Below are positions 6,872-50,913 of a stretch of 55,339 bases of DNA, piece by piece. This stretch comes from Actinomycetes bacterium. GTDB lineage: Bacteria; Actinomycetota; Acidimicrobiia; IMCC26256; PALSA-555. Positions within the stretch are counted from its first letter, which is position 1; every line of letters starts with the position of its first letter. Under the pieces are notes generated by a model. It had not been told where the DNA came from. It worked only from the letters and a program-made list of their open reading frames with translations, and made no database searches. The DNA is taken from NCBI GenBank assembly GCA_037142235.1, contig JBAXBB010000002.1:1-55339 (forward strand), written 5' to 3'. The position numbers and the translations under genes are program-made.

Positions 6872-8054
6872 CCGTCAAGATCATGCCGCTCGACGGCGAC
6901 GGCCCGGCGCCACCCACCACGAGCACGTTCGTCGCGCCCGGCACCTGGTTGATCGCGGTCCCGCGGATCTGGCGCACGGCTTCGTTCACGTGACTCATGC
7001 CGTGCGTGTAGGCCTCGGCGAGGTTTCCCCCGTGGGGGTTGACCGGCAACGGACCGTCGAGTCCGAGGTTGCCGTCCTGCACGTACGGGCCACCCTCCCC
7101 CTTGGCGCAGAACCCGAAGTCCTCCAGGCTCATGATCACCATGGCGGTGAAGTGGTCGTAGACCATCGCGACGTCGAGGTCGGCGAGCGAGAGACCCGAG
7201 AGCCGGTAGAGCTCGGCGGCGATCGCCCGCTGCCCGCTCGACGCGAAGTCCTCGTCGGGCTGGTTGTAGAAGCTCATGAGAGCGTTCCCGAACCGGTAGG
7301 GCGCACCCGACCCGGCCGCCGCGATGTAGGCGGGAGCGTTCGGGCAGTCCTGCGCGCGCTCGGCGGAAGTGATGACGACCGCGCATCCGTAGTCGGTCTC
7401 CATGCAGAAGTCGAAGAGCCGGAGCGGGTCGGCGATCATTTGGCTCTCGTGGTGGTCCTCCACCGTGATCGGCGTGCGGAACCGCGCCTCGGGGTTGTTG
7501 GCGGCCATCGCGCGTGCGTGCATCGTGACGTGGGCGAACTGCTCCGTGGTCGTGCCGTAGAGGTGCATGTGGCGCCGAGCGGCGAGGGCGAACATCTGGC
7601 CCGGCGACTGGAGGCCGTAGGGCACGCTGAACTGCATCGGGCCGCCGACGGCCGGTACCCCCTGGCCCATCTGACCGAACGCCTGGCCGTAGCGCGCGCC
7701 CGGTTCCATCGTCATGACCTTGTGCACGACCACGTAGTCGGCCTGACCGGTGGCCACGGCCATGGCGGCGTTGGAAAAGGCACCACACATCGACGCTCCC
7801 CCGCCACCCCAGGTCTGCGAGGCGTACCGGAGCCGCTCGCCCCCGAAGGCCTCGAACAGGTCCGGGGGGTCGATCGGCGTGTAGTACGAGCTGTACCCGT
7901 CGACGTCCTTCGGCGAGATGCCGGCGTCGGCGCACGCGGCCGTGATCGCCTCGACCACGAGCCGCAGGTGCCCACGGTCGGCGTACTGGCCGCGCTTGGC
8001 GAACGGCACGTAGCCGATCCCGACGATGGCGGCCTGGTTGCGCAGGTCGATCAC
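6861..8054 (-). CDS. thiolase-like / SCP-x type lipid-transfer protein
   Basis: The N-terminus (AAIVGIGYVPFAKRG) and the HGGNLAEAYTHG C-terminal motif are typical of nonspecific lipid-transfer thiolases. The GTG start at 8054 overlaps the upstream stop as GTGA. Confidence 0.85.
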   Translation of the reverse strand: MIDLRNQAAIVGIGYVPFAKRGQYADRGHLRLVVEAITAACADAGISPKDVDGYSSYYTPIDPPDLFEAFGGERLRYASQTWGGGGASMCGAFSNAAMAVATGQADYVVVHKVMTMEPGARYGQAFGQMGQGVPAVGGPMQFSVPYGLQSPGQMFALAARRHMHLYGTTTEQFAHVTMHARAMAANNPEARFRTPITVEDHHESQMIADPLRLFDFCMETDYGCAVVITSAERAQDCPNAPAYIAAAGSGAPYRFGNALMSFYNQPDEDFASSGQRAIAAELYRLSGLSLADLDVAMVYDHFTAMVIMSLEDFGFCAKGEGGPYVQDGNLGLDGPLPVNPHGGNLAEAYTHGMSHVNEAVRQIRGTAINQVPGATNVLVVGGAGPSPSSGMILTGAR

Positions 8055-28237: not shown

Positions 28238-29422
28238 TCAGCCCGACGGCCCGGCCCGGGCGCCGACCGAGGCGGCCCCATGGTCCCGGTCGCCATGGTC
28301 CCGGTCGCCATGGTCCCGGTCGCCATGGTCCCGGTCGCCATGGTCCTGATCCTGGGCGATGCGGTGGAGTTCGAGTCCGTCGGGGCGGTTCGGGTTGCCG
28401 GTGAGCACCCGGGTGCCGTGCGGGACGAGGCGGTGGTGATGCATCGCACACACAGCGGCCAGGTTGGTGAAGTGGTCGGAGCCGCCCTGGCTGCGCGGCA
28501 CGAGGTGGTGGACCTCGAGGCCCCAGCGGATCTGGCAGCCCGGCCAGCGACACCTCCCGTCGCGCCGGACGACCGCCCGACGGACCTTGGCGTTCAGCGG
28601 ATGCACCGCCCGGGAGATCCCCACCACGGAGCCGGCCTCGTCGACCACGGCGACCTCGACGGTCGAATTGGCGCGCAGCTGCTCGACCTGCTCGACCCCG
28701 AGCAGCACGCCGTCGGCGACCTCGGCCGGACCGTCGACGGGCACGCTGACCACCACCTTGGGCCGCACACCGTCGGCAGCCGTGCCGGTCTTCCCGGCCG
28801 CGCGGTCCACCAGCGCCGTCAGGGCATCGGCGGCGCGCCGTTCGGGACGCTCCCACGGCTCACCTCGGGCCGGGCGCATCTGCTCGGTGATCTGGTGGAT
28901 CACACTCTCGAACGCCGCCCCCTGGAGGTCGGGCAACGCGAACCGACCTTCGAGCATGCCCCGATCTTCGGTCCACCAGGTCCGGAGGAGCCGGGCCTCG
29001 TGCCGCCGCCGGGTGTCCTCCACGCTCGGCGGGCGCGCCCGGCGGGCTTCGCGATTCAGGTCGGCGGGCGACATGTGCTGGGCGCGCTCGGCCCACTCAC
29101 GGTCCGATCCGGCGTCGGCGACCTTCACCGCCGCCTTGGCCTGCTCCACACTCAAGAGCCCCTCACCGGTTGCGGAGGCCACCTCGGGCAGGGCGTCGAA
29201 CGCTCGGGCCGTCTCGACCGTGGCGCGCAGGTCCCGCAGGTCCACCCCGTCACGCGCGGCCAACGAGTCGTCGATCCGACCGCGTTCGTCGAGCACGAGC
29301 GTGACCGCCAGGATCTCCGTCTCGATCCGCCGCTGCTCGACCAACAGCGCATCACGCCGCGTCGCCAACGCCGGGGTCTCCCAGCACCGGAGCCTGTCGA
29401 CCACTTCCGACCACTCGAACAT
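28238..29422 (-). CDS. DUF222-type HNH endonuclease (REP13E12-like family)
   Basis: Has the HNH core GLEVHHLVPRSQGGSDHFTNLAAVCAMHHHRL. The N-terminal DUF222-like region is typical of actinobacterial 13E12-type proteins. The start is ATG 29422 (MFEWSE) or ATG 29455. Confidence 0.8.
   Translation of the reverse strand: MFEWSEVVDRLRCWETPALATRRDALLVEQRRIETEILAVTLVLDERGRIDDSLAARDGVDLRDLRATVETARAFDALPEVASATGEGLLSVEQAKAAVKVADAGSDREWAERAQHMSPADLNREARRARPPSVEDTRRRHEARLLRTWWTEDRGMLEGRFALPDLQGAAFESVIHQITEQMRPARGEPWERPERRAADALTALVDRAAGKTGTAADGVRPKVVVSVPVDGPAEVADGVLLGVEQVEQLRANSTVEVAVVDEAGSVVGISRAVHPLNAKVRRAVVRRDGRCRWPGCQIRWGLEVHHLVPRSQGGSDHFTNLAAVCAMHHHRLVPHGTRVLTGNPNRPDGLELHRIAQDQDHGDRDHGDRDHGDRDHGDRDHGAASVGARAGPSG
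28279..28353. repeat. 15-bp tandem repeat (catggtcccggtcgc), four perfect copies plus one degenerate, coding
   Basis: On the minus strand it encodes the (DRDHG)n tail of the HNH protein (...DQDHGDRDHGDRDHGDRDHGDRDHG...). Confidence 0.95.
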
Positions 29423-29489
29423 GAAGCCATCATCCCAGCGGGGTGTGACACTCATCCCCCGTCGCCGGTGCCGGGATAGGGTTGGCCCG

Positions 29490-30728
29490 ATGACGACGCA
29501 CGACGCGGCCCGGCCCACGGTCGACTTCGACCTGCTCGACTCGCCCAGCCGAGCGAAGTCCGACACCGACTGGGAGGCGCTCCTCGACGGAGGCTGCCCG
29601 GTCGTCTGGTCGGAGCACAACGGCGGCATGTGGGTCGTGAGCAGCTACGAGGCGATCTCGGCCGTGTTGCGCGACTGGGAGCGGTTCTCGTCGGAGCGCT
29701 TCGACCCCGACCGCTGCGCGATCTCGTTCTCCACGGGCAAGGTCCCGCTCATGCTCCCCGAGGAGGCCGACCCACCGCGCTGGTACGAGCTGCGGCGGGC
29801 GCTGGCGGTCATCCTCTCCCCGCAGGCGTCGGAGCGCCTGCGCCCCCGGGCGCGCTCCTGGGCCCACCACCACCTCGACCGGGTGTGCGAGCAGGGCCAC
29901 GCCGACCTGGTCGACGACCTCGCGGTGCCGGTGCCCTCGGCGGTGGTGATGGAGTGGATGGGCTTCCCGCCCGAGGAGTGGGACTGGTTCCGGGCCGCCT
30001 TCCACGGCGTGCCCGCCTACCCCAACGGCTCGCCCGAGCGCCGGAAGGCCTCCGAGGCGTACGGACACGTGCTCGACCGGATCGTCGAGGAGATCGCCGA
30101 CCGGCGGGCGAACCCCCGCGACGACATCCTCACCGTGATCGCCCACCACGAGATCGACGGCGAGCGCGTCCCCGACGAGATCGCCCATTCCCTCGCCTTC
30201 ATCACGCTCACCGGTGGCGTCGACACCACCACGTCGCTCACCGGGGCCGCGATCGCCCACCTCGCGACCCATCCGGCCGACCGGCAGCGGCTCCTCGACG
30301 ACCCGTCGCTGCTGACCACCGCCACCGAGGAGTTCCTGCGCTACTACCCGCCCGCGCGCACCCACGCCCGCACCGTGGCCGTCGACACCGAGTTCGCCGG
30401 CGTGGAGATGAAACGGGGCGAGCGGGTGTGCGTGAGCGAGGTCGCGGCGGGCCGCGACGAGGCGGCGTTCCCCGACGCCCGCGAATTCGTCATCGACCGC
30501 AACCCCAACCGACACCTGTCGTTCGGGGTCGGCATCCACCGCTGCCCCGGCTCGCACCTCGCCCGGATCGAGTTCGTGGAGATGATCACGGCGCTGCTCG
30601 AGCGGATGCCCGACTTCGCGATCGACCCCGATGCGATCGTCGAGTACCCCGACTGGTCGATGTCGGGGGGCTACCGCAGCCTGCCCGCCACGTTCACGCC
30701 GAGTGCCCCGTGGGGGCTCACCGCCTGA
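29490..30728 (+). CDS. cytochrome P450
   Basis: Has the heme-Cys loop FGVGIHRCPGSHLAR, ExxR (EEFLRYYPP) and the I-helix LTGGVDTTT. The start is ATG 29490 (MTTHDAARP). Confidence 0.9.
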   Translation: MTTHDAARPTVDFDLLDSPSRAKSDTDWEALLDGGCPVVWSEHNGGMWVVSSYEAISAVLRDWERFSSERFDPDRCAISFSTGKVPLMLPEEADPPRWYELRRALAVILSPQASERLRPRARSWAHHHLDRVCEQGHADLVDDLAVPVPSAVVMEWMGFPPEEWDWFRAAFHGVPAYPNGSPERRKASEAYGHVLDRIVEEIADRRANPRDDILTVIAHHEIDGERVPDEIAHSLAFITLTGGVDTTTSLTGAAIAHLATHPADRQRLLDDPSLLTTATEEFLRYYPPARTHARTVAVDTEFAGVEMKRGERVCVSEVAAGRDEAAFPDAREFVIDRNPNRHLSFGVGIHRCPGSHLARIEFVEMITALLERMPDFAIDPDAIVEYPDWSMSGGYRSLPATFTPSAPWGLTA

Positions 30729-31782: not shown

Positions 31783-32145
31783 TCAGCCCGCGGCGTCCTC
31801 CTGCGCCGCCAGCTCGGCGGCGGAGTACCGGGTGTTGACGTCGACCGCGACGGCACCCAGGCGGGCCACGGCGAACCAGCTCAGCAGGAACGCCGGGCAG
31901 TTCTCGAGCAGGATCATCACGCCGTCGCCGCGCCGGACGCCGCACGCCACCAGGCCCGCCGCCACGCGGTCGACCGCCGCGTTGAACTCGGCGTAGGTCC
32001 AGCGCCCCGCCTCCCCACCGGGCGGCTCCCAGATCACGAAGTCGTGGTCACCGCGGCTCGCGGCCCGGGACGCCAGCAGCGTGGTGACGTCCTGCCCCGA
32101 GAACGGGTGGACGGCAGGCAGCGTGATCGACGTCGTGATCGGCAC
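31783..32145 (-). pseudogene. 5' fragment (about 120 codons) of an AMP-dependent acyl-CoA synthetase gene
   Basis: The GTG at 32145 is preceded by GGAGGA. The translation matches only the N-terminal region of FadD-type ligases (WTYAEFNAAVDRVAAGLVACGVRRGDGVMILLENCPAFLLSWFAVARLGAVAVDVNTRYSAAELA). It stops at 31783, long before any AMP-binding motif. Confidence 0.65.
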
Positions 32146-32185
32146 GGATCCTCCGCAAGGGCCGGGACGCCCAGTGTCCCACAGG

Positions 32186-32285
32186 ACGCCAGTTCCGGGG
32201 AGGACGACGGTGGGACGGTTCGACGGCAGGGTCGTGACCGTGACCGGCGCCGGGCGGGGCATCGGTCGGGCCCACGCCCGGGCGT
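32186..32285 (+). pseudogene. orphan 5' fragment of an SDR gene (copy of 35621-35720)
   Basis: This 100 bp has 2 mismatches relative to the RBS, GTG start and first 25 codons (GRFDG[R/K]VV[T/I]VTGAGRGIGRAHARA) of the SDR at 35645. Similarity ends abruptly at 32285. Confidence 0.85.
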
Positions 32286-32308
32286 CCGGCGTCGGGCGTG
32301 CCCGACAC

Positions 32309-33514
32309 CTACATGAAGTTGCGGGTGTGCAGATCGGCGATGGTCTCGGCCTCACCGGCGGTGAACCCGAGCCGGGCGAGCCGACCCCGACGCCCGTCGG
32401 CCATGTCGCGCTGGAGGTCCTGGACGCAGTCCCAACCCAACCGGACGGCGTCCGGGGTGGCGGACCCGGCGGCGAGGAGCACCAGGGCGTCGAAGACGTC
32501 CTCGTTGAGACCCGAGGTGTGCTGCAACGCCCGGTGACGGGCCTCCACGGCCCGGGCCAGACGCGGGCGCAGGTCGGGATCGAGGGTGGTGTGGCGCTCG
32601 AGGTGCGCCAGCGCGAACGCGACGTGGCGGGCCTCGTCGGCGCGGGTGCGCGCCGCGATCTGGCGGGTGAGCGGATCGGGGGCGTGGTGCTCGAGGAAGG
32701 TGAGCAACGACACGAACGTGCCCTCGCCCATCACCGAGAGCAGGAACGCCGCCGTGGCGTAGTCGGGCTCGTCGAGCAGGGTCTGCAGCGAGGCGCGGCC
32801 CCCCGAGGTGGACAGCGCGAGCGGGCGCCCCGCGAGCCGGGCCCGTCGGGTGAAGACCTCGACGTGGCGGGCCTCGTCGGCCACCGTCACGGCCAGGACC
32901 TGTTGGATCTCGCGGAAGTGGGGGTGGACCTGGCCGAGGAAGCGGGCCGGCACCACCAAGGCGGCCTCCTCGTTCTCGATCAGGAACGTCATCACCTGCA
33001 CCACTGCCGCCTCCACCTCGGGCGGGTTGTCGACCGGCACCGACCAGTCGACTGCGGTCGCCGGGTCCCACTGGCCTGCGGCCGCCTGCGCGTAGAGGGC
33101 GGCCGCCCGGTCGGTCCAGACGTCGTCCCGGTGCGCGAGCCGGAACCGGGGGGAGGGCCCACCGGGCTCGACCGCGGCACCGCGTGCAGCCAACCCCCAG
33201 TCGGGGACCGCCGTCGCGGCGATCCCGTCGGGCTCGCCGTCGCCCTCCGCCCGGGCGGCGCCTCGCCAGCGGGCCCCGGCGGTCGCCCCGCGCTCGACCC
33301 AGCCGACGACGCCCGGCGGGTCACCGACCTCGACCGACCGCCAGGTGTGCCCCTGCTGACGGCACCAGGCGGCGAGGTGCGCGGACAGCGCAGGGTGGTC
33401 CCCCCGCACGGCGATCCGCTCCCCCGCCGCCCGGTCGGACAGGGCCAGCGCGACAAGCACGTGCGCGCCTCCGTCGAGCCCGAGCGCACCCAGGTCGACG
33501 ACCGCGGTGCTCAC
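32309..33514 (-). CDS. ferritin-like diiron protein with N-terminal TusA-like domain
   Basis: Has two E...DEARH four-helix-bundle motifs (ENEEAAL...ADEARHVEVF and GEGTF...ADEARHVAFALAHL). The N-terminal 70 aa or so follow the TusA pattern (VVDLGALG..GERIAVRGDHPALSAHLAAWCRQQGH) without the Cys-Pro. The GTG at 33514 overlaps the upstream stop as GTGA. Confidence 0.7.
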   Translation of the reverse strand: MSTAVVDLGALGLDGGAHVLVALALSDRAAGERIAVRGDHPALSAHLAAWCRQQGHTWRSVEVGDPPGVVGWVERGATAGARWRGAARAEGDGEPDGIAATAVPDWGLAARGAAVEPGGPSPRFRLAHRDDVWTDRAAALYAQAAAGQWDPATAVDWSVPVDNPPEVEAAVVQVMTFLIENEEAALVVPARFLGQVHPHFREIQQVLAVTVADEARHVEVFTRRARLAGRPLALSTSGGRASLQTLLDEPDYATAAFLLSVMGEGTFVSLLTFLEHHAPDPLTRQIAARTRADEARHVAFALAHLERHTTLDPDLRPRLARAVEARHRALQHTSGLNEDVFDALVLLAAGSATPDAVRLGWDCVQDLQRDMADGRRGRLARLGFTAGEAETIADLHTRNFM

Positions 33515-34365
33515 CGCGGATAGCCCGCCGTGAGGATCTGCCCGTCGGTCCCGTAGAACCCGAGTCGGTCGACTGCCGCCTCGAGCTGGTCGTACCCGGA
33601 CGTGCGGCCCGGCCGCCACTCCCGCAGCCCCTCGAGCTCGAGGAGCGGCCGGACCTCGGGATCGTCGAACGACATCCCGAGCAGCAGGTCGGTGAACCGG
33701 TCGACCAGGGCCGGGTCCACACCGTCGAGCACCGTCATCGTGCAGTGGTCGTAGGGCGCCGTGCAGGTCAGGATCCGCAACGTGTCGGCGTCGACGGTGC
33801 CCTCACGGGCGAAGAGCAGCTGGTTGCCGTCGATGACGCACGCGGCATCTGCCCGACCCTCGACCAGCGCGACGACCGCGTCACGCTCACCGCCGATGTG
33901 GTCACCGTGCTTGGTGACCATGACGTCGTGGCGCAGGACCGTGACGTCGGACCCGGGGTCGAGCCCGGCCGCCGCCAGGTGTGCGAGCGGCAAGAGCGTG
34001 GCCTGGGGCGAGTCGACCGCCCCGACCGCGACCGTCCGGCCCGCGAGCGCGCCGACGTCGTCGAGGCCGGCATCGGCCCGCACCAGGACCACCGACGTGA
34101 GGTCCTGGTCGGTGTCGCGCATCGCGACCGACCGGGCCGTCCGGCCCACCGCCGCGGCGAGCCGCCGGGTGCGGACCCACGCCAGGGGTGAGTCCCAGGT
34201 GACGTCGACGTGCCCGGCGAGGTGCGCCTCGGCCTGCGCCTCGTAGCCCGAGTAGAGCACGTAGTCGAAGTCGAAGCCCCGGTCGGCGAACCAGTCACCG
34301 AAGCCCTCCCAGATGGTGACCACCTTGGGGTCGTAGGCCACCGCGCCGAGCGTGAACGGTCGCAT
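33511..34365 (-). CDS. PhnD/SsuA-type periplasmic-binding-protein-fold protein lacking a signal peptide
   Basis: ATG 34365 (MRPFTLGAVAYDPKVV) is preceded by GAGGAGGG. The PhnD-like pattern begins at residue 4, so there is no room for a leader. The upstream part of track ORF 33511..34797 is Arg-rich and overlaps the ACAD gene. Confidence 0.7.
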   Translation of the reverse strand: MRPFTLGAVAYDPKVVTIWEGFGDWFADRGFDFDYVLYSGYEAQAEAHLAGHVDVTWDSPLAWVRTRRLAAAVGRTARSVAMRDTDQDLTSVVLVRADAGLDDVGALAGRTVAVGAVDSPQATLLPLAHLAAAGLDPGSDVTVLRHDVMVTKHGDHIGGERDAVVALVEGRADAACVIDGNQLLFAREGTVDADTLRILTCTAPYDHCTMTVLDGVDPALVDRFTDLLLGMSFDDPEVRPLLELEGLREWRPGRTSGYDQLEAAVDRLGFYGTDGQILTAGYPR

Positions 34366-34376
34366 CACCACCCTCC

Positions 34377-35504
34377 TCACCCGAACAGGGGCAGGCCGCA
34401 CAGCGCCCGCCCGATGAACTCCTGGAGGGCGTCGACCGTCGGCGCCATCACCGCCGATGCACGGGCGTCGCGGAAATGACGCTCGATGCCGATGTCCTTC
34501 CGGAAGGCGGCACCGCCACCGACGCGCATGGCGAGGTCGAGGACGTCGAGCGCCGTCCCGCCCGCCACCGCCTTCGACTGGAGCATGCGCAGCGGCGCGT
34601 CCTCCCGCCCGGCGAGCAGGGCGGCGACGGCTTCGGCGACGAGCGTGTCGGCGGCGTCGGCCCGGTTCTTCATCTCGGCGAGATGCTGGCGCACCACCGG
34701 CTGGTCGGCGAGCGACTGACCGAGGTGCTCGAGGCGCGCACCGGAGGCGTGGGCGACCGCCTTGCCGATCCCGGCGTCCATCAGCCCGAGGCTGCACGAC
34801 GCGTTGAGGATCTGGAACACGGGCAGGACCACGCCCAGCGCCAGGTCGAGCCCGGCGCCGTCGGCGCCCAGCCGTGCCCCGACGGGGATGCGGACCCCGG
34901 TGGCCCGCACCGGGCTCGAGGCGTTACCGCGCAGGCCGAGACCGTCGAAGGCGCCGACGACGTCGAGGCCCGGTGCGTCGGCCGGGACCAACCACAGCGT
35001 GGCACCGTCGGGGGCGGTGGCCGGCCGGCTGGTCCAGACGTAGGAGTCGGCCTCGCCGGCGGACGTGACCCAGCTCTTCGACGCGTCGAGGACGACGTCG
35101 CCACCGTCGGGGGTGGCGGTGCCGAGGGGTGCCCAGAACTGACTCCGCGATCCGGTCTCGGAGAAGGCGAGGGTGCTGAGGTGCTCGCCGGCGGCGATGG
35201 CCCGGCGGACGTCGTCGGGACCCTCCGCCTCGATGATGGCGACTGCGCTGTAGTGCATGCACACCACCATGGCGCTGCTCCCGCACACCCGGGCGAGCGA
35301 GCGCACGACGAGCGCGGCGTCGGCGAGGGTGCCGCCCAGCCCGCCGACCTCGGGAGCACTGATCAGGCCGAGCAGTCCGGTCTGGCCCAGTGCGGTGACG
35401 GTGTGGCGGGGAAAGGTGCCGTCGGCGTCGACATCGGCGGCGACGGGCTCGACCACGGACGGGATGAGTTCCTCGAGCACGTCGAGGACGGGACGGGCGG
35501 TCAT
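34377..35504 (-). CDS. ACAD-fold flavoprotein lacking the canonical catalytic-Glu motif (monooxygenase/oxidase-like)
   Basis: A 375-aa protein with ACAD architecture. The C-terminal region reads FRDARASAVMAPTVDALQEFIGRAL, where the neighbouring ACAD has STIYGGSAEVQRNIVARRLL. Confidence 0.75.
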   Translation of the reverse strand: MTARPVLDVLEELIPSVVEPVAADVDADGTFPRHTVTALGQTGLLGLISAPEVGGLGGTLADAALVVRSLARVCGSSAMVVCMHYSAVAIIEAEGPDDVRRAIAAGEHLSTLAFSETGSRSQFWAPLGTATPDGGDVVLDASKSWVTSAGEADSYVWTSRPATAPDGATLWLVPADAPGLDVVGAFDGLGLRGNASSPVRATGVRIPVGARLGADGAGLDLALGVVLPVFQILNASCSLGLMDAGIGKAVAHASGARLEHLGQSLADQPVVRQHLAEMKNRADAADTLVAEAVAALLAGREDAPLRMLQSKAVAGGTALDVLDLAMRVGGGAAFRKDIGIERHFRDARASAVMAPTVDALQEFIGRALCGLPLFG

Positions 35505-35567
35505 GACCGCATCGACTTCGTGACGGTGGCCATCGGGGCCTCCTTTCGGTGGGTGAGCCTGCAGTGT

Positions 35568-35577
35568 GACACGTGTC
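35568..35577. promoter_or_regulatory. perfect 10-bp palindrome GACACGTGTC in a divergent promoter region
   Basis: Lies in the 140-bp gap between ACAD-fold gene start 35504 (-) and SDR start 35645 (+). It overlaps a GTGTGACAC 9-mer that also occurs at 29443-29451. Confidence 0.25.
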
Positions 35578-35620
35578 GCGGCCCGGCACCGCTCCGGTAC
35601 GGTTCCGGCATTGCATCGGC

Positions 35621-35720
35621 ACGCCAGTTCCGGGGAGGACGACGGTGGGACGGTTCGACGGCAAGGTCGTGATCGTGACCGGCGCCGGGCGGGGCATCGG
35701 TCGGGCCCACGCCCGGGCGT
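35621..35720 (+). repeat. parent copy of the 100-bp duplication (SDR RBS and 5' end)
   Basis: Matches 32186-32285 at 98 of 100 positions. Confidence 0.9.
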
Positions 35721-36568
35721 TCGCGGCCGAGGGCGCAGCGGTGCTCGTCAACGACCCGGCCCAGCGGCCCGGGTCGGACGCGGTCTCGGTCGTGGCCGAG
35801 ATCACGGCCGCCGGTGGCATCGCCGAGCCCGACACCCACTCGGCCACCCTCGACGGCGCCGAGGCGATCGTGGCCCACGCGCTCGAGGCGTTCGGCCGGG
35901 TCGACGCCCTCGTCAACAACGCCACCGCGTTCGGCAACGGCGACCTCTGGCGCCTGGCGCCCGCCGACTGGGAGCGCACCATCGCCGTCAACCTGTCGGG
36001 CTACTTCGCCATGACCCGGGCGGTCGTGCCGGCCCTGGCCGACGCGGGCGGCGGAGCGATCGTCAACACGTCGAGCCAGTCGGGATTCGGCCATCCGTCG
36101 CTGGTGGCGTACTCCGCGGCCAAGGAGGGGGTGATCGGGCTGACGCGCACCACCGCGAAGGAAGTGGGTCGGTTCGGGATCCGCGCCAACGCCATCCGCC
36201 CGGTCGCCATCACCCCCGGGGTGACCGAGTACCACGGCCGGGCCAACGAATGGCTCGAGCTCATGGACCTCACCATGGGCGCGCGCACCGGCGGGCTCGA
36301 CCCCGAGAAGTTCTCACCCGCCAAGATTGCGCCGTTCGTGGTGTGGCTGTGCAGCGCCGCGGCGCACGACGTCAACGGCCGGACGTTCCTGGTGATGGGC
36401 GACCGCATCACGCTGCTGACCGAGCCCGAGCCGGCCGCGGCCATCGCGCAGCGCGGCGGCTGGACGCTCGACGCGCTCGACGAGATCGCCCCACGTGATC
36501 TCGTCGCGGGCCTCGAGAACCCGTTCCGCCTCGACGGCCACCCCCACCTCCAGGGCTTCCCCGACTGA
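35645..36568 (+). CDS. short-chain dehydrogenase/reductase (MFE-2 / hydroxyacyl-CoA-dehydrogenase-like)
   Basis: The GTG at 35645 is preceded by GGAGGA. Motifs are RFDGKVVIVTGAGRGIGRAHARAFAAEGAAVLVND, NNATAFG and YSAAKEG (YxxxK). Confidence 0.85.
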   Translation: MGRFDGKVVIVTGAGRGIGRAHARAFAAEGAAVLVNDPAQRPGSDAVSVVAEITAAGGIAEPDTHSATLDGAEAIVAHALEAFGRVDALVNNATAFGNGDLWRLAPADWERTIAVNLSGYFAMTRAVVPALADAGGGAIVNTSSQSGFGHPSLVAYSAAKEGVIGLTRTTAKEVGRFGIRANAIRPVAITPGVTEYHGRANEWLELMDLTMGARTGGLDPEKFSPAKIAPFVVWLCSAAAHDVNGRTFLVMGDRITLLTEPEPAAAIAQRGGWTLDALDEIAPRDLVAGLENPFRLDGHPHLQGFPD

Positions 36569-46297: not shown

Positions 46298-47530
46298 TCA
46301 GAGACCGGATCTCGTCAATCGCATCTGCACGACGTCGATCATCTGCTCCTCGAATCCGGCCTCGCAGTAACAGAGGTAGAAGTCCCACAACCGGATGAAC
46401 TGTTGATCGAGACCGAGCGTGGCGAGGGTCGCCTCATCAGCATGCAGATTCACTCGCCAACGACGGAGCGTCTCGGCGTAATCGCCACCGAATCCAAAGT
46501 TCTCGTCGACCCGGAAGTCGGTGACCCGCGCGAGCGATCGCTCGATCGCCTCGATCGACGGCAGACAGCCGCCCGGGAAGATGTGCGCCTTGATGAAGTC
46601 ACGTGTGTTCTTCGCCCGTTCGAAGCGATCGGGTTCGATCACGATCGCCTGCAAGCCCATCGTGCCACCGGGGACCAGCAGATCGCAGCAGGCCGAGAAG
46701 AACGTGTCGTAGTCGCGCCAATCGACCGCCTCGATCATCTCGATCGCGACCAACCGGTCCCAGACCCCCGAAAGGTCCCGATAGTCAACGCCCAGAACCG
46801 TGATTCGCTCCTCGAGGCCGGCTGTCGCGACGAGTTCCTTCGCGTAGGTGTACTGCTCGGCCGAGATGGTGGTCGTCGTGACGTGGGCACCGAAGCGCGT
46901 CGCTGCGTGGATGGCGAAACCTCCCCAACCCGTTCCGATCTCGAGCACGCGATCACCGGGCCGGATCTCGATCATCCGACAGAGCCGATCGAGTTTGGCG
47001 ATCGAGGCATCCTCGAGTGTGACGTCCGCGGAGGCAAAGAGCGCCGAGGAGTACATCATCGTGGGGTCGAGGAGTTGGCCGAAGAACTCGTTCCCGAGGT
47101 CGTAGTGCGCACCGATGTTCTGCCGATCGCGATGCTTGTCCTGCGGACGCAGACGTCGGAGCCGGTCGGTGATCGGCCCCGCCACCGACTGCAGCAACGA
47201 CCGCGGACCGTCGGCGATGCTGGCCGCACGAGCAAGGATTCGCAGGGCGACCGTGAGCTCCGTGGTCGCCCAATACCCCTTCGACCATGCTTCGCCCACG
47301 CCCGCACTTCCACCGAGCAGGATGGCCGGCCAAGCCCTCAGGTCGGTGACCTCGATCTGGGCACGCAACGTCGGCCCTCGAGCACCTCGACCGCCGTGTC
47401 GGCGACAGGCTCGGTACGTACGACCGCCGAAGGTGACCTGGAGATCATCCCGGACGCACGAACGTGCGAGCGCGATCAGCACGAACCTGCAGAGACGTCG
47501 ATGCAGAGCGAGCAGCGCCCTTGCGAACAT
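46298..47530 (-). CDS. cfa: cyclopropane-fatty-acyl-phospholipid synthase family SAM methyltransferase
   Basis: Has HYDLGNEFF and the SAM motif VLEIGTGWGG, plus the C-terminal FxxWxxYLxxCxxxF-type region (RLWDFYLCYCEAGF). The start is ATG 47530. Confidence 0.85.
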   Translation of the reverse strand: MFARALLALHRRLCRFVLIALARSCVRDDLQVTFGGRTYRACRRHGGRGARGPTLRAQIEVTDLRAWPAILLGGSAGVGEAWSKGYWATTELTVALRILARAASIADGPRSLLQSVAGPITDRLRRLRPQDKHRDRQNIGAHYDLGNEFFGQLLDPTMMYSSALFASADVTLEDASIAKLDRLCRMIEIRPGDRVLEIGTGWGGFAIHAATRFGAHVTTTTISAEQYTYAKELVATAGLEERITVLGVDYRDLSGVWDRLVAIEMIEAVDWRDYDTFFSACCDLLVPGGTMGLQAIVIEPDRFERAKNTRDFIKAHIFPGGCLPSIEAIERSLARVTDFRVDENFGFGGDYAETLRRWRVNLHADEATLATLGLDQQFIRLWDFYLCYCEAGFEEQMIDVVQMRLTRSGL

Positions 47531-47532
47531 GT

Positions 47533-48369
47533 TCACCGACTCCGATCGGGATGGCGGACGAAGGGCACTCGCTTCAGTGCGAGCCGGATCGCATGCCGAT
47601 GGATACTCGACCACACGCGAACCGTCTGGAACGGATGGCGACGAACCTGGGCGAGCAGGGACTCGGCAGTCAGAGGAAGTCGCGTGAGACTCAGATCTGC
47701 ATCGAAGATCTTCACGTCGCCACCATCATGCGATTCGATGCTTTCGAGTCTGAACCAGACCCGATCATGGGGAGGTATCGCGGTGAACCGATAGGTCGAG
47801 TCCATCTGGAGGAACGGAGAGACGTGCAACGCTTTCGCGAACTCCGACCTGATTCGGCCGCTTTCGTCAGTCTCCGCGATCGCAACACCGTGGTCACGGT
47901 CCGCGCAAGCGCCAGGACGCGCATCGATCACGTACCAATGACGTTCCTTCCACGGCGTGTTCGTGACTTCGAGGACCACGACGTCAATCCGTTCGGATCC
48001 GTCGTCCTGAGGCTCCGCCGAGAGGCAGTAGTGAACGGTGATCGGGTTGAACACATACCCGTTCGCCCGCAGTTGGGTGAGCGTGAGGACACGACCCTTC
48101 GGCGCGTGACCGGTCCGAACCTCGACGAGGTGGCGGATCGCATCTCCGAGCGACAGAGAACGATCGCCATCGAGATAGTCAGATCGTTCGAACCGGATCG
48201 CAGGCCAGATCGACCCACCGACGGCACGAATCGATTCGGACGTCGACCGGTCCGATCCCGAACCGTCGTGCTCGAGGAGGAACAAGAAGAGTGGGAATCG
48301 AAACTCGTGAGTCACCGGGGAAAAGCGCCGATGTCGAGTCACGCCCTCGTACAGCGAGCTCGTGCTCAC
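47533..48369 (-). CDS. DUF1365 family protein
   Basis: The N-terminus (LYEGVTRHRRFSPVTHEFRF) and YVFNPITVHYC are typical of DUF1365. The GTG at 48369 overlaps the upstream stop as GTGA. Confidence 0.8.
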   Translation of the reverse strand: MSTSSLYEGVTRHRRFSPVTHEFRFPLFLFLLEHDGSGSDRSTSESIRAVGGSIWPAIRFERSDYLDGDRSLSLGDAIRHLVEVRTGHAPKGRVLTLTQLRANGYVFNPITVHYCLSAEPQDDGSERIDVVVLEVTNTPWKERHWYVIDARPGACADRDHGVAIAETDESGRIRSEFAKALHVSPFLQMDSTYRFTAIPPHDRVWFRLESIESHDGGDVKIFDADLSLTRLPLTAESLLAQVRRHPFQTVRVWSSIHRHAIRLALKRVPFVRHPDRSR

Positions 48370-49655
48370 AGCCCGACTCCGAAGTGAGCACACACGTCGA
48401 GTGCCGAGTTCACCCCATCCTCGTGGAAACCGAAACCCCAATACGCTCCGGCGAAGTAGGTCGCCTGGTGGCCCTGGATCTCTGGGCGTCGCTGTTGTGC
48501 AGCAAGCGCAGCGGCATCGAACACCGGGTGTTCGTACTGGAACTCGGCGATCACACTGTCGGGCGCGATCTCGCCCGAGCGATTCAGCGTCACCAGAAGA
48601 TCTGCAGAGGAGTCGATCGACTGCAACCTGTTCATCCAATAGGTCAGGGTCGCCTCTTCGCCTGATCCGGCACCGAGGTGATAGTTCCAACTCGCCCGAG
48701 CACGCGGCGTCCGGGGCAGGAACGCTGCATCGGTGTGCAGGGTCGCCGTGTTCGGCTGATACCTGATGTCGCCGAGCACTTCGGTCTCAGCGGTCGTCGC
48801 ATCGGCGAGGAGCGACAGGCTCTGTCCCGAATGACAGGCAAGGACCACCGCGTCGAACGTTTCAGACCGGCCGTCGTCCAAGGTAACCAAGACTTCGACA
48901 CCCAGCGATCGACTCGGATCGTCGCTTCGACGCACCCTCCGGACCGGAGATGAGAGCTGGACCGGTCGCCTCAGACGAGCGATGAGGGCGCGCACATATT
49001 CACGGGATCCCCCCGTCACCGTCCGCCACGTGGGAATGCCCTGCAGACCCAGCAATCCGTGATTGTCCATGAATCGGAAATAGGTGGCGGCCGGAAACTC
49101 CAGGAACGTTTCCGGATCCGCCGACCAGATCGCCGAACCGAACGGAATGAGAAATTCGTCGACGAACCGGCGTCCATGCTGGTGTCCAGTGATGAACTCA
49201 CGAAGGGTCATGCCAGCCGTGAACGAAGCAGCATCGGTCAGGGCGGCGCGACCCGCTCGATTGAATCGGAAGATGTCGATGAGCATCCGCGTGAACGACC
49301 AACTCAGAAGGTTGCGTCGCTGCGCATAGAGCGTGTTGAGGTTGGTGCCGCGGTATTCGAGTCCGGAAGATTCCGACATCACCGAGAAACTCATCTCGCT
49401 GGGTTGGCTCGCCACACCGAGACGATCCAGCAACGTCACAAAGTTCGGATAGTTGCCCTCGTTGAAGACGATGAACCCGGTATCCACCGCGAAGGTCTCC
49501 GATCGACCAACAGTGTCAGTCACCGTTGCATCGACCGTGTTCGTGTGACCGCCGACGCGATCTCCACGTTCGAAGACCGTCACCTCATGATCGGGGTCGA
49601 GCAGGTACGCACACGTGAGTCCCGAGATCCCGGAACCGATGATCGCGATCTTCAC
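48366..49655 (-). CDS. FAD/NAD-binding oxidoreductase (amine-oxidase / desaturase-like)
   Basis: The N-terminus is KIAIIGSGISGLTCAYLL...VTVFERGDRVGGH. The GTG at 49655 overlaps the upstream stop as GTGA. Confidence 0.85.
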   Translation of the reverse strand: MKIAIIGSGISGLTCAYLLDPDHEVTVFERGDRVGGHTNTVDATVTDTVGRSETFAVDTGFIVFNEGNYPNFVTLLDRLGVASQPSEMSFSVMSESSGLEYRGTNLNTLYAQRRNLLSWSFTRMLIDIFRFNRAGRAALTDAASFTAGMTLREFITGHQHGRRFVDEFLIPFGSAIWSADPETFLEFPAATYFRFMDNHGLLGLQGIPTWRTVTGGSREYVRALIARLRRPVQLSSPVRRVRRSDDPSRSLGVEVLVTLDDGRSETFDAVVLACHSGQSLSLLADATTAETEVLGDIRYQPNTATLHTDAAFLPRTPRARASWNYHLGAGSGEEATLTYWMNRLQSIDSSADLLVTLNRSGEIAPDSVIAEFQYEHPVFDAAALAAQQRRPEIQGHQATYFAGAYWGFGFHEDGVNSALDVCAHFGVGL

Positions 49656-50641
49656 GATGGCTGTCGACCTGCGCCACTGCTCGCCTCACACCATTGCCAG
49701 AGTCGGTCGCGTTCGCTCTGCGATGCCCCCGTCCCCGGAAGCTTGGTGATGCTCCGCCGGTGCCGATCGAGCCAGAAGCCGCCGTTCGCGCCGAGGTCCT
49801 GCTCGTCGACATCGGCCAACCAGACGATCGTGTCGGCACCCGCTTCGACCGATCGCAGGACGGGCTTCGTGATCGAGTGGAAACGAGGAAGCGACGTCAG
49901 CACTCCGGGAGTGTCGACCCAGCCTGGGTGCATGGCCTGGAAGATGGTGCCCGACCTGCACCGTCGAGCCCATTCCACATTGAGCTCGACCTGCGCTCGC
50001 TTGGCCCGTGCATAGGCGCGCACGCCGTGGTAGGACTCCGGGCCGGCGGCGAGCTTCTCGACCTCGAGTTTCTCGGGATACATGCCCCCCGAAGCGACAG
50101 TGATCACACGACCACTCGACTCCCCTCCTTCGAGCCGCGGGAGCAGCAGCGACGTGAGCAGGAACGGTCCGAGGACCTGCGAGGCCACCGTCATCTCGAA
50201 CCCCTGCGGAGACACCGTGTACCCGGGCGAGAGCGCTCCCGCGTTGTGGACCAGGACGTCGAGGTGCTGGTGGGCACCCATGATGTCGATCGCGATCGAA
50301 CGCACGGCGGCGAGATCGCCCAGATCGGCGATGCTCGTGTGCACCTCGAATCCTCGCCGAGCGAGCAGTGCTGCTGTCGAAGCGGTCCGACCCGGATCAC
50401 GACCGACGAGGTGCAACGTCGCCCCGAGTTCTCCGAACCGAGTGGCCACCGCCAAACCGATGCCGGAGGTGAAGCCGGTCACGACGGCGACCCGGCCATC
50501 CATCCGTGCCGGAACTTGGTGGGACCATCCCTCCAGACGGCGGCGGGCGGAATACCCGAGGCTGCTCCAACTCGGAACGATCACCGCTTCCATGAACGCA
50601 TCACAGAATGACGCGACAGAGCGTGGAAAACGAGCATCCAT
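49652..50641 (-). CDS. short-chain dehydrogenase/reductase (DHRS12-like)
   Basis: Has VTGFTSGIGLAVA, HNAG and YARAKRA. It is the first gene of the SDR / FAD-oxidoreductase / DUF1365 / CFA cluster. Confidence 0.8.
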   Translation of the reverse strand: MDARFPRSVASFCDAFMEAVIVPSWSSLGYSARRRLEGWSHQVPARMDGRVAVVTGFTSGIGLAVATRFGELGATLHLVGRDPGRTASTAALLARRGFEVHTSIADLGDLAAVRSIAIDIMGAHQHLDVLVHNAGALSPGYTVSPQGFEMTVASQVLGPFLLTSLLLPRLEGGESSGRVITVASGGMYPEKLEVEKLAAGPESYHGVRAYARAKRAQVELNVEWARRCRSGTIFQAMHPGWVDTPGVLTSLPRFHSITKPVLRSVEAGADTIVWLADVDEQDLGANGGFWLDRHRRSITKLPGTGASQSERDRLWQWCEASSGAGRQPS

Positions 50642-50913
50642 CAGGATTCGATCCTACCCGTGACCGATTGCCGCACCGCCCGTGGTGGTGTCGCGCCCCT
50701 ACCTCCGAGCGCGCACTCGTCGACACGCACGGGGCCGTCCCGCGGGCGCGTCAGGCAGTCATTGCCCGACACCCACACGGCGCCCATGCCTACCGCCGAC
50801 CGCTCTCAGCGGGTAGGTTGCAAGAGCGCTCGAGGGTGATGTACCGGATTTCGGCGGACCCCGCGCTTGCCTTGGGTAGAGATTCTCTGGGCCGACCCAG
50901 GAGAACCATCCCG

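Follow-up and report, generated by a model that had tools for sequence, protein, structure and literature searches.

A conserved trio of an ACAD-fold flavoprotein, a leaderless PhnD/PtxB-fold protein and a TusA-like/diiron fusion, with a possible link to selenium metabolism

Closest described systems and conservation of the trio

Mycobacterium tuberculosis carries a gene pair, Rv1679 (FadE16) and Rv1680, in which a protein with an acyl-CoA dehydrogenase (ACAD) fold is paired with a leaderless protein resembling solute-binding proteins (SBPs). A like arrangement, extended by a third gene, is the subject of this study. It lies on a metagenome contig of an Actinomycetes bacterium (JBAXBB010000002.1; ENA ERZ27299986 k141_36952; G+C 72-74%), and the whole stretch of 55,339 nt that was analyzed is called the window here. 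Three genes on its minus strand, g1 (34377-35504; 375 amino acids (aa), ATG start), g2 (33511-34365; 284 aa, ATG start) and g3 (32309-33514 including the stop codon; 401 aa, GTG start), encode an ACAD-fold flavoprotein, a leaderless PhnD/PtxB-fold protein and a fusion of a TusA-like domain with a diiron protein, respectively. The Rv1679 and Rv1680 families are the best curated families for g1 (NF049984, Rv1679 family ACAD; 381 bits vs. a cut-off of 600) and g2 (NF049985, Rv1680 family SBP-like; 229.6 bits vs. 400), yet both proteins score well under the cut-offs. None of the NCBIfam models matches g3, and the named Rv1679/Rv1680 families thus appear without a diiron partner.

The DszABC enzymes of the 4S pathway for dibenzothiophene desulfurization, which releases a chalcogen oxyanion, resemble the trio in composition: they combine a non-dehydrogenase ACAD-fold enzyme, a Cys enzyme with a binding-protein fold (DszB, whose Cys is reportedly essential) and a second oxygenase. 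However, this second oxygenase is a luciferase-like flavoenzyme, whereas its counterpart in the trio is of the predicted diiron type and comes with no flavin reductase. The periplasmic oxyanion binders PtxB, HtxB, PhnD and AioX have the fold and the positions of the anion motifs in common with g2, but g2 has no signal peptide and no transporter genes. Compared with PtxB, two of its motifs are replaced (STS by DSP and THD by ERD) and two others, HGDH and DHC, are added. The predicted bundle of g3, a four-helix bundle with two E...ExxH motifs, is shared with AurF/CmlI, VlmB, aldehyde-deformylating oxygenase, R2lox and MiaE. At 15-20% identity to such diiron oxidases and oxygenases, g3 differs from them in an additional TusA-like domain, a linker and a LHTRNFM tail, and it has no known partner reductase. 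Finally, TusA and YedF (SirA-like) have their fold in common with the N-terminus of g3, reflected in a partial Pfam match, but g3 lacks the Cys of their CPxP motif. The YedF-type SirA-like proteins are known candidates for an association with SelD (PMC5322559).

The trio is a real, conserved module present in at least six phyla. Its distribution was analyzed in 80 genomes retrieved with a g3 profile, each locus being covered with 10 kb on either side. A g2 homologue is located directly upstream of g3 in 79 of the 80 genomes. Full-length g1, upstream of g2-g3, is present in 65 of them, full-length g2 in 76 and g3 in all 80, with six or seven loci having no g1. The hosts belong to Actinomycetota (Acidimicrobiia, Actinomadura, Streptomyces, Pseudonocardia), Pseudomonadota (Burkholderiales, Nitrosomonadales and others), Acidobacteriota, Myxococcota, Planctomycetota and Chloroflexota. 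Judging from their pairwise identities, which correlate at r = 0.84-0.86 around means of 0.58-0.61, g1, g2 and g3 evolve in step. The g3 family is large: of the candidates that were scored, at least 5,520 are non-redundant homologues, and clustering at 50% identity gives 238 clusters (E ≤ 1e-30).

No fourth gene belongs to the module. All-against-all clustering of 6,837 open reading frames (ORFs), together with a Pfam survey of 140 flanking genes, revealed no other family in more than four of these flanking genes, and no reductase, flavin reductase, ferredoxin or electron transfer flavoprotein (ETF) gene is conserved near the trio in the same survey. Rosetta-stone fusions were not informative, P0248 adding only a lycopene-cyclase-like tail, and no plasmid copies of the trio were found. 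The initial annotation had regarded the trio as undescribed, which agrees with both the conserved neighbourhood and the lack of a family with an assigned function for g3. We found no curated family or paper assigning a function to the trio and, in the library searched, no paper on the function of Rv1679/Rv1680, on a combination of TusA, ferritin-like and ACAD proteins or on selD with a diiron protein; neither the comparative-genomics papers on selenium nor the preprint on selenoneine mentions the trio. Each of the three proteins appears to be a new member of a known superfamily, and the three-part architecture and the selenium link described below appear undescribed. Apart from selenium, the trio would represent a new architecture for diiron chemistry, with a base-less ACAD-fold flavoprotein and a transporter-derived binding protein as partners, and it would offer a starting point for the function of proteins related to the unstudied M. 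tuberculosis pair.

Selenium genes beside the trio

Selenium genes surround or adjoin the trio in 11 of the 80 genomes. These cases represent two phyla and at least five arrangements, and the association is the first testable clue to the function of the trio. Genes were called in the loci and scanned with NCBIfam at curated cut-offs; the neighbours passing these cut-offs are SelD, SelA, SelB, MnmH, the putative selenate SBP TIGR04553, SenA and SenB. A selD gene occurs within 10 kb in eight of the 80 loci, compared to about 0.1 of 80 expected by chance (our estimate, with at most one selD per genome).

In loci L022, L038 (Variovorax) and L060 (Rhizobacter), the trio is inserted in the order fdh-fdhE-selA-g1-g2-g3-selB, with 13-34 nt between selA and g1 and 13-16 nt between g3 and selB. 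Locus L076 has the same selA-g1-g2-g3-selB order with two extra genes ahead of selB. A second arrangement, g1-g2-g3-selD with mnmH on the opposite strand, is present in L069 (g3 and selD 31 nt apart) and L077 (4-nt overlap), and in Methyloversatilis (L043) g3 is followed by selD after 118 nt. In Peristeroidobacter (L041), selD-selA is located beside the trio on the opposite strand. The same locus contains, immediately upstream of g1, an 83-aa ORF (7661-7909) with a SelB winged-helix domain (PF09107) and nothing else, apparently left over from an earlier selB-trio order. Finally, the trio is accompanied by senB-senA and selD in L015, L040 (Actinomadura) and L057 (Pseudonocardiales). The adjacent selenium pathways thus differ between lineages (selenocysteine, selenouridine and selenoneine), leaving SelD and its product selenophosphate as the only common element. 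The trio genes of the selenium-linked loci contain no in-frame TGA that could encode selenocysteine, and the split genes in L015 and L068 are due to frameshifts.

A second set of 80 metagenome contigs was obtained by a scan seeded with the Variovorax g3. Selenium genes are located beside the trio in 23 of these contigs, which are of the Variovorax type and repeat the selA-trio-selB order. In L105 and L107, a putative selenate transporter is situated between g3 and selB. One contig (L098, Ga0307515_10000399) carries a selenium island of 21 kb comprising mnmH, selA-g1-g2-g3-selB, a TIGR04553-like SBP, SenA-like and SenB-like genes, and selD.

Two further neighbours were observed. The ergothioneine synthase EgtB is encoded immediately next to the trio in the proteobacterial contigs L023, L053 (NCBIfam score 566 vs. 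a cut-off of 360 bits), L054 and L158, which hints at a wider link to thio-/seleno-histidine metabolism. In Nitrosomonadales, a set of AmmeMemoRadiSam-like genes (radical SAM, AMMECR1-like and MEMO-like) was recognized by eye at 2-4 kb from the trio (L025, 5494-8590; also L033, L045, L067 and L079). Rv1681 (MoeX), which adjoins Rv1679/Rv1680, is presumably a radical-SAM protein as well.

Gene layout and predicted properties of the three proteins

The three minus-strand genes are packed as one unit, as the initial annotation had stated, and both their coordinates and the GTGA overlap of the g3 start (GTG) with the g2 stop (TGA) at 33511-33514 were read again from the sequence. This stop/start overlap points to translational coupling of g2 and g3, and in related loci the two genes likewise overlap or abut. 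The gap of 11 nt between g1 and g2 (34366-34376, GGAGGGTGGTG) also stands, but not the placement of the ribosome-binding site within it: the Shine-Dalgarno sequence of g2, GAGGAGGG, spans 34371-34378 on the minus strand and overlaps the stop codon of g1, with a spacing of 6 nt between GGAGG and ATG. The G+C content at third codon positions (GC3) is 0.92-0.94 in the frames of g1, g2 and g3 and falls to 0.51-0.57 where the ORFs of g2 and g3 extend further upstream, which supports the short starts. Longer isoforms of g2 or g3 were ruled out by GC3, the lengths of the homologues and the independent gene calls of the source pipeline, which are likewise 375, 284 and 401 aa.

Upstream of g1, a minus-strand ORF of 10 codons (MATVTKSMRS, 35501-35533) overlaps the ATG of g1 with its TGA (ATGA) and has a strong Shine-Dalgarno sequence of its own (GAAAGGAGG, 35539-35547). 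Since g1 lacks a good Shine-Dalgarno sequence, it is probably translated by coupling to this upstream ORF. Similar ATGA-overlapping ORFs precede g1 in L003, L006 and L018, their peptides being unrelated and non-conserved. No sigma-70 or terminator consensus was found, and no Rfam family, rRNA or tRNA was detected anywhere in the window.

The g1 protein matches the Pfam domains Acyl-CoA_dh_N, _M and _1 (PF02771, PF02770 and PF00441), all above their gathering scores, and thus has the complete three-domain ACAD fold that had been noticed at first reading. The initial annotation had further put an Asp at the position of the catalytic base. In three HMMER alignments with solved ACADs, however, it is Ala354 (in 'VMAPT') that pairs with the catalytic Glu of the YEG motif, and the partner of Asp358 is the Glu of 'GTSE', which is not catalytic. 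Asp358 was therefore rejected as the base, the original assignment being a misalignment by four residues. The accompanying claim that the catalytic Glu is missing did hold. Of 66 orthologues, 64 have Ala and two have Gly at position 354; position 230 (the base position of isovaleryl-CoA dehydrogenase (IVD), located via the IVD sequence) is Phe in all, and no Glu is invariant anywhere in the protein. Classical ACADs (EC 1.3.8.x) carry their catalytic Glu at one of these positions, corresponding to Glu376 of medium-chain acyl-CoA dehydrogenase and Glu254 of IVD; g1 carries it at neither. With Ala354 and the invariant Phe230, it has therefore no canonical base and is predicted to be incapable of the normal Glu-base dehydrogenation mechanism. 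The motifs GxRGNxS and GGxAFR are conserved.

By its similarity scores, g1 resembles true short-chain ACADs more than it does the oxygenases with an ACAD fold: its match to PF00441 (4e-19) is stronger than that to PF08028 (2.6e-11), which is of the oxygenase type, and among solved structures it is nearest to butyryl/short-chain acyl-CoA dehydrogenases, a butyryl-CoA dehydrogenase giving the best match (2.6e-38). The ACAD-fold N-oxygenases 3m9v and 4kcf are found among the solved relatives at about 5e-13. Weak NCBIfam matches include 3-sulfinopropanoyl-CoA desulfinase (2.6e-26), SfnB (6.7e-22) and DszC (3.6e-10). The bit scores against the Group D two-component flavin monooxygenases amount to 39 for DszC (cut-off 850), 78 for SfnB (431) and 48 for HsaA (450).

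The g2 protein matches the Pfam domain Phosphonate-bd (PF12974; E 4e-33, 115 bits). In its AlphaFold2 model (predicted local distance difference test (pLDDT) 90.9), the first beta-strand begins at residue 4, and the 120 closest homologues are all 278-301 aa long without a leader. On these grounds g2 is predicted to be a cytoplasmic protein, in agreement with the initial proposal of a protein that matches the PhnD type from residue 4 onward and has no signal peptide. No transporter permease or ATPase genes were found in the window or among the conserved neighbours of the trio. After the Rv1680 family, the next NCBIfam match is TIGR04553 (putative selenate ABC transporter SBP, E 2.6e-15). Top Foldseek matches are PtxB (phosphite; E 1.2e-20), PhnD, HtxB (hypophosphite), AioX (arsenite) and ArrX (arsenate), with E-values from 1e-20 to 1e-15 and template modelling (TM) scores of 0.6-0.74; DszB is absent from the top 50 structural matches. 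The invariant residues of g2 (W57-x-S59, D118-S-P-Q121, H153-G-D-H156...E160-R161 and D206-H-C208) align with the anion-binding motifs of PtxB (STS, THD and YPQYPW) and map to the ligand cleft, which is remodelled and rich in His, Asp and Cys (also Glu and Arg). The cleft would fit a site for catalysis, metal binding or covalent capture better than a plain transport receptor.

The g3 protein consists of three parts. The TusA-like domain (residues 1-75; 33290-33514, minus strand) has invariant residues W50, G55 and H56, and residues 4-74 are modelled as beta-alpha-beta-alpha-beta-beta. Its match to Pfam TusA (PF01206) reaches 20.7 bits, which is under the gathering cut-off of 28.6, while a divergent family member (P0257) clears the cut-off at 30.5 bits. 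The initial annotation had recognized the TusA pattern and the missing Cys-Pro, and both were recovered here: in a check of 24 + 13 members, none of the 37 aligned sequences has a Cys at the active-site (CPxP) position, which reads Gly-Ala-His or Gly-Leu. Persulfide or perselenide carriage at the TusA site is therefore excluded.

The linker (residues 76-133; 33116-33289, minus strand) contains the invariant motif W106-G-L-A-x-R-G...E116-x-G-x-P120 (WGLAxRGxxxExGxP, residues 106-120, 33154-33199). With a pLDDT below 50 over residues 80-133, it is predicted to be disordered in the monomer and is therefore a candidate partner-docking segment. The C-terminus LHTRNFM (residues 395-401, 32312-32332) is invariant and still recognizable in members that are 33-46% identical. 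Neither the linker motif nor this tail has a counterpart in the diiron relatives of g3. The C-terminal tail of ribonucleotide reductase R2 is a docking element and, by analogy, both the linker motif and the LHTRNFM tail may be docking elements as well.

The ferritin-like diiron four-helix bundle (residues 134-401; 32312-33115, minus strand) contains the two DEARH motifs noticed initially, at residues 213-217 (32864-32878) and 293-297 (32624-32638). Together with E182 and E264, they provide the proposed diiron ligands E182, E214/H217, E264 and E294/H297 in the pattern (E-x30-32-ExxH) x2. Only these six canonical ligands were identified; AurF/CmlI sites typically carry an extra (third) His ligand. 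AurF (PF11583) is the sole Pfam domain family scoring over its gathering score in g3 (32.0 bits vs. 29.6), covering only positions 102-212 of the 282 positions of the profile. There is a weak sequence match to MiaE, and the Foldseek matches to aldehyde-deformylating oxygenase, VlmB, R2lox and desaturases are of about equal rank. The g3 bundle is thus best described as a predicted generic diiron oxidase/oxygenase scaffold that falls in no family with an assigned function. Its earlier assignment to N-oxygenases or desaturases finds no specific support, and the label 'oxygenase module' given to the trio derives from superfamily membership.

Possible functions and the surroundings of the trio

Tentatively, with a probability that we put somewhat below even, the trio would serve the selenophosphate pathway as a self-contained flavin/diiron redox system handling a selenium (or sulfur) species. 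The three proteins would constitute one cytoplasmic system and form a complex, with g1 as a flavin adenine dinucleotide (FAD)-type ACAD-fold protein, g3 as a protein of the diiron oxidase/oxygenase type with a Cys-less TusA-like docking domain, and g2 holding, as its relatives do, a small anionic group akin to phosphite, phosphonate or arsenite. The module would process or hand over a chalcogen species for the SelD pathway, the redox steps being supplied by g1 and g3. The ligand of g2 could be selenite or seleninate, in analogy to the arsenite and phosphite bound by its relatives, or selenophosphate, which resembles phosphite and phosphonate in having a PO3 group and one non-oxygen substituent. 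In genomes that do not use selenium, a sulfur analogue could be bound instead. As the trio has no conserved reductase, ferredoxin or ETF gene in its vicinity, g1 may be the electron partner of the diiron site in g3.

A more specific form of this proposal, which is possible but doubtful, is that the trio represents an unrecognized selenium-trafficking system of aerobic bacteria. Here, the cytoplasmic g2 would capture selenite or selenophosphate, the flavin/diiron pair would convert or protect the captured species, and the trio would supply or buffer the common selenium donor for the synthesis of selenocysteine, 2-selenouridine and selenoneine. This bears on a question that is still open in general, namely where the reduced selenium used by SelD comes from and how aerobes deal with selenophosphate, which is labile to oxygen. 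If selenium trafficking applies, the trio would provide the 'selenium delivery' step around SelD that has long been missing, and a dedicated, widespread three-protein system would make the question of the selenium supply of SelD directly testable by knockouts.

Several points weigh against a role in the selenophosphate pathway. No sel or sen genes are present in the 55-kb window, and 69 of the 80 genomes have no selenium gene within 10 kb of the trio, including all Acidimicrobiia, Acidobacteriota, Myxococcota and Nitrosomonadales loci. Many of the selenium-linked loci come from related Burkholderiales and are therefore not independent. For the trio of the window, we infer the selenium link by orthology (55-60% identity, same invariant residues). 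Complex formation, the ligand of g2, the direction of the redox steps and the metal and flavin contents are predictions, and the proposal gives no rationale for supplying selenium through a diiron, O2-type centre. Moreover, the nearest sequence relatives of g1 are true acyl-CoA dehydrogenases, and this may point to a CoA-thioester as the substrate. In both the window and its nearest relative (L084, 87% identical), the trio is located among catabolic genes, encoding a short-chain dehydrogenase/reductase (SDR), a cytochrome P450, a KshA-like Rieske protein, a thiolase/ChsH2 and an ACAD.

These neighbours lead to the alternative that the trio takes part in the catabolism of lipid- or steroid-type CoA-thioesters, which we consider unlikely. 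In that case, g1 would bind an acyl-CoA, g3 would hydroxylate or desaturate it and g2 would be an accessory protein, with the selenium neighbours reflecting lineage-specific chance or co-regulation. Six Acidimicrobiia-type loci have Family III CoA-transferases near the trio, the best solved relatives of g1 are consistent with such a substrate, and among the structural neighbours of g3 are acyl-ACP desaturases, aldehyde-deformylating oxygenase and R2lox, which binds fatty acids. However, the catabolic neighbours are conserved only among close relatives, g1 has no catalytic base, and the fold relatives of g2 bind small inorganic or phosphonate anions rather than lipids. The operonic insertion of the trio between selA and selB, its translational coupling to selD and its adjacency to senAB in another phylum would also go unexplained.

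A heteroatom release of the Dsz type is rather improbable. Here, g1, acting like DszC or SfnB, and g3 would oxygenate an organosulfur or organoselenium compound, and g2, acting like DszB, would hydrolyze the sulfinate or seleninate to sulfite or selenite, serving element scavenging. Besides the parallel in composition with dszABC, the invariant Cys208 and His207 in the cleft of g2 would suit such a hydrolysis, a second gene of the Acyl-CoA_dh_2 type follows g3 in L040, and a selenium neighbourhood is compatible with scavenging upstream of SelD. The weak matches of g1 to SfnB, 3-sulfinopropanoyl-CoA desulfinase and DszC point in the same direction, but they are far under the family cut-offs and inferior to its scores against true ACADs. 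The missing DszB among the structural matches of g2 and the lack of a conserved flavin reductase nearby also argue against it, and no neighbour suggests a substrate.

Last, an N-oxygenase/oxidase module along the lines of the initial annotation, made up of an ACAD-fold amine or nitroalkane oxidase and an AurF-type diiron N-oxygenase to which g2 presents the substrate, is very improbable: the AurF match, the azoxy synthase VlmB among the top structural matches of g3 and the N-oxygenases 3m9v and 4kcf among the relatives of g1 speak for it, but the Asp-base argument was a misalignment, the AurF match is partial, matches to other diiron enzymes are equally good, and an identity of 55-75% across six phyla without biosynthetic neighbours is atypical for natural-product N-oxygenases.

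The surroundings of the trio in the window show traces of rearrangement. A direct repeat of 116 nt (32186-32301 and 35621-35736, 92% identical) brackets the trio; the left copy duplicates the 5' end of the SDR gene, which is intact at 35573-36568. A 121-aa N-terminal fragment of an AMP-binding protein (acyl-CoA synthetase; 31783-32148, minus strand) is likewise located between the KshA-like Rieske gene and g3. In L084, which has the order SDR-trio-Rieske with 37 nt after g3, neither the repeat nor the AMP-binding fragment is present. The idea of a mobile cassette was therefore rejected, and the fragments at 31783-32301 are probably a relic of a local rearrangement rather than the borders of an insertion.

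Two other regions of the window deserve mention. Between the ACAD and P450 genes, a minus-strand ORF of 463 aa (28238-29629) contains an HNH-endonuclease domain and, at its C-terminal end, a tandem repeat of the pentapeptide DHGDR in about five copies (near 28270-28350); it may be a mobile or selfish element. The block at 46300-50650 has a G+C content of 0.62-0.63 compared to about 0.72, with all genes on the minus strand, among which cyclopropane-fatty-acid-synthase-like, DUF1365-like, amine-oxidase-like and SDR genes were recognized by eye, and may have been acquired horizontally.

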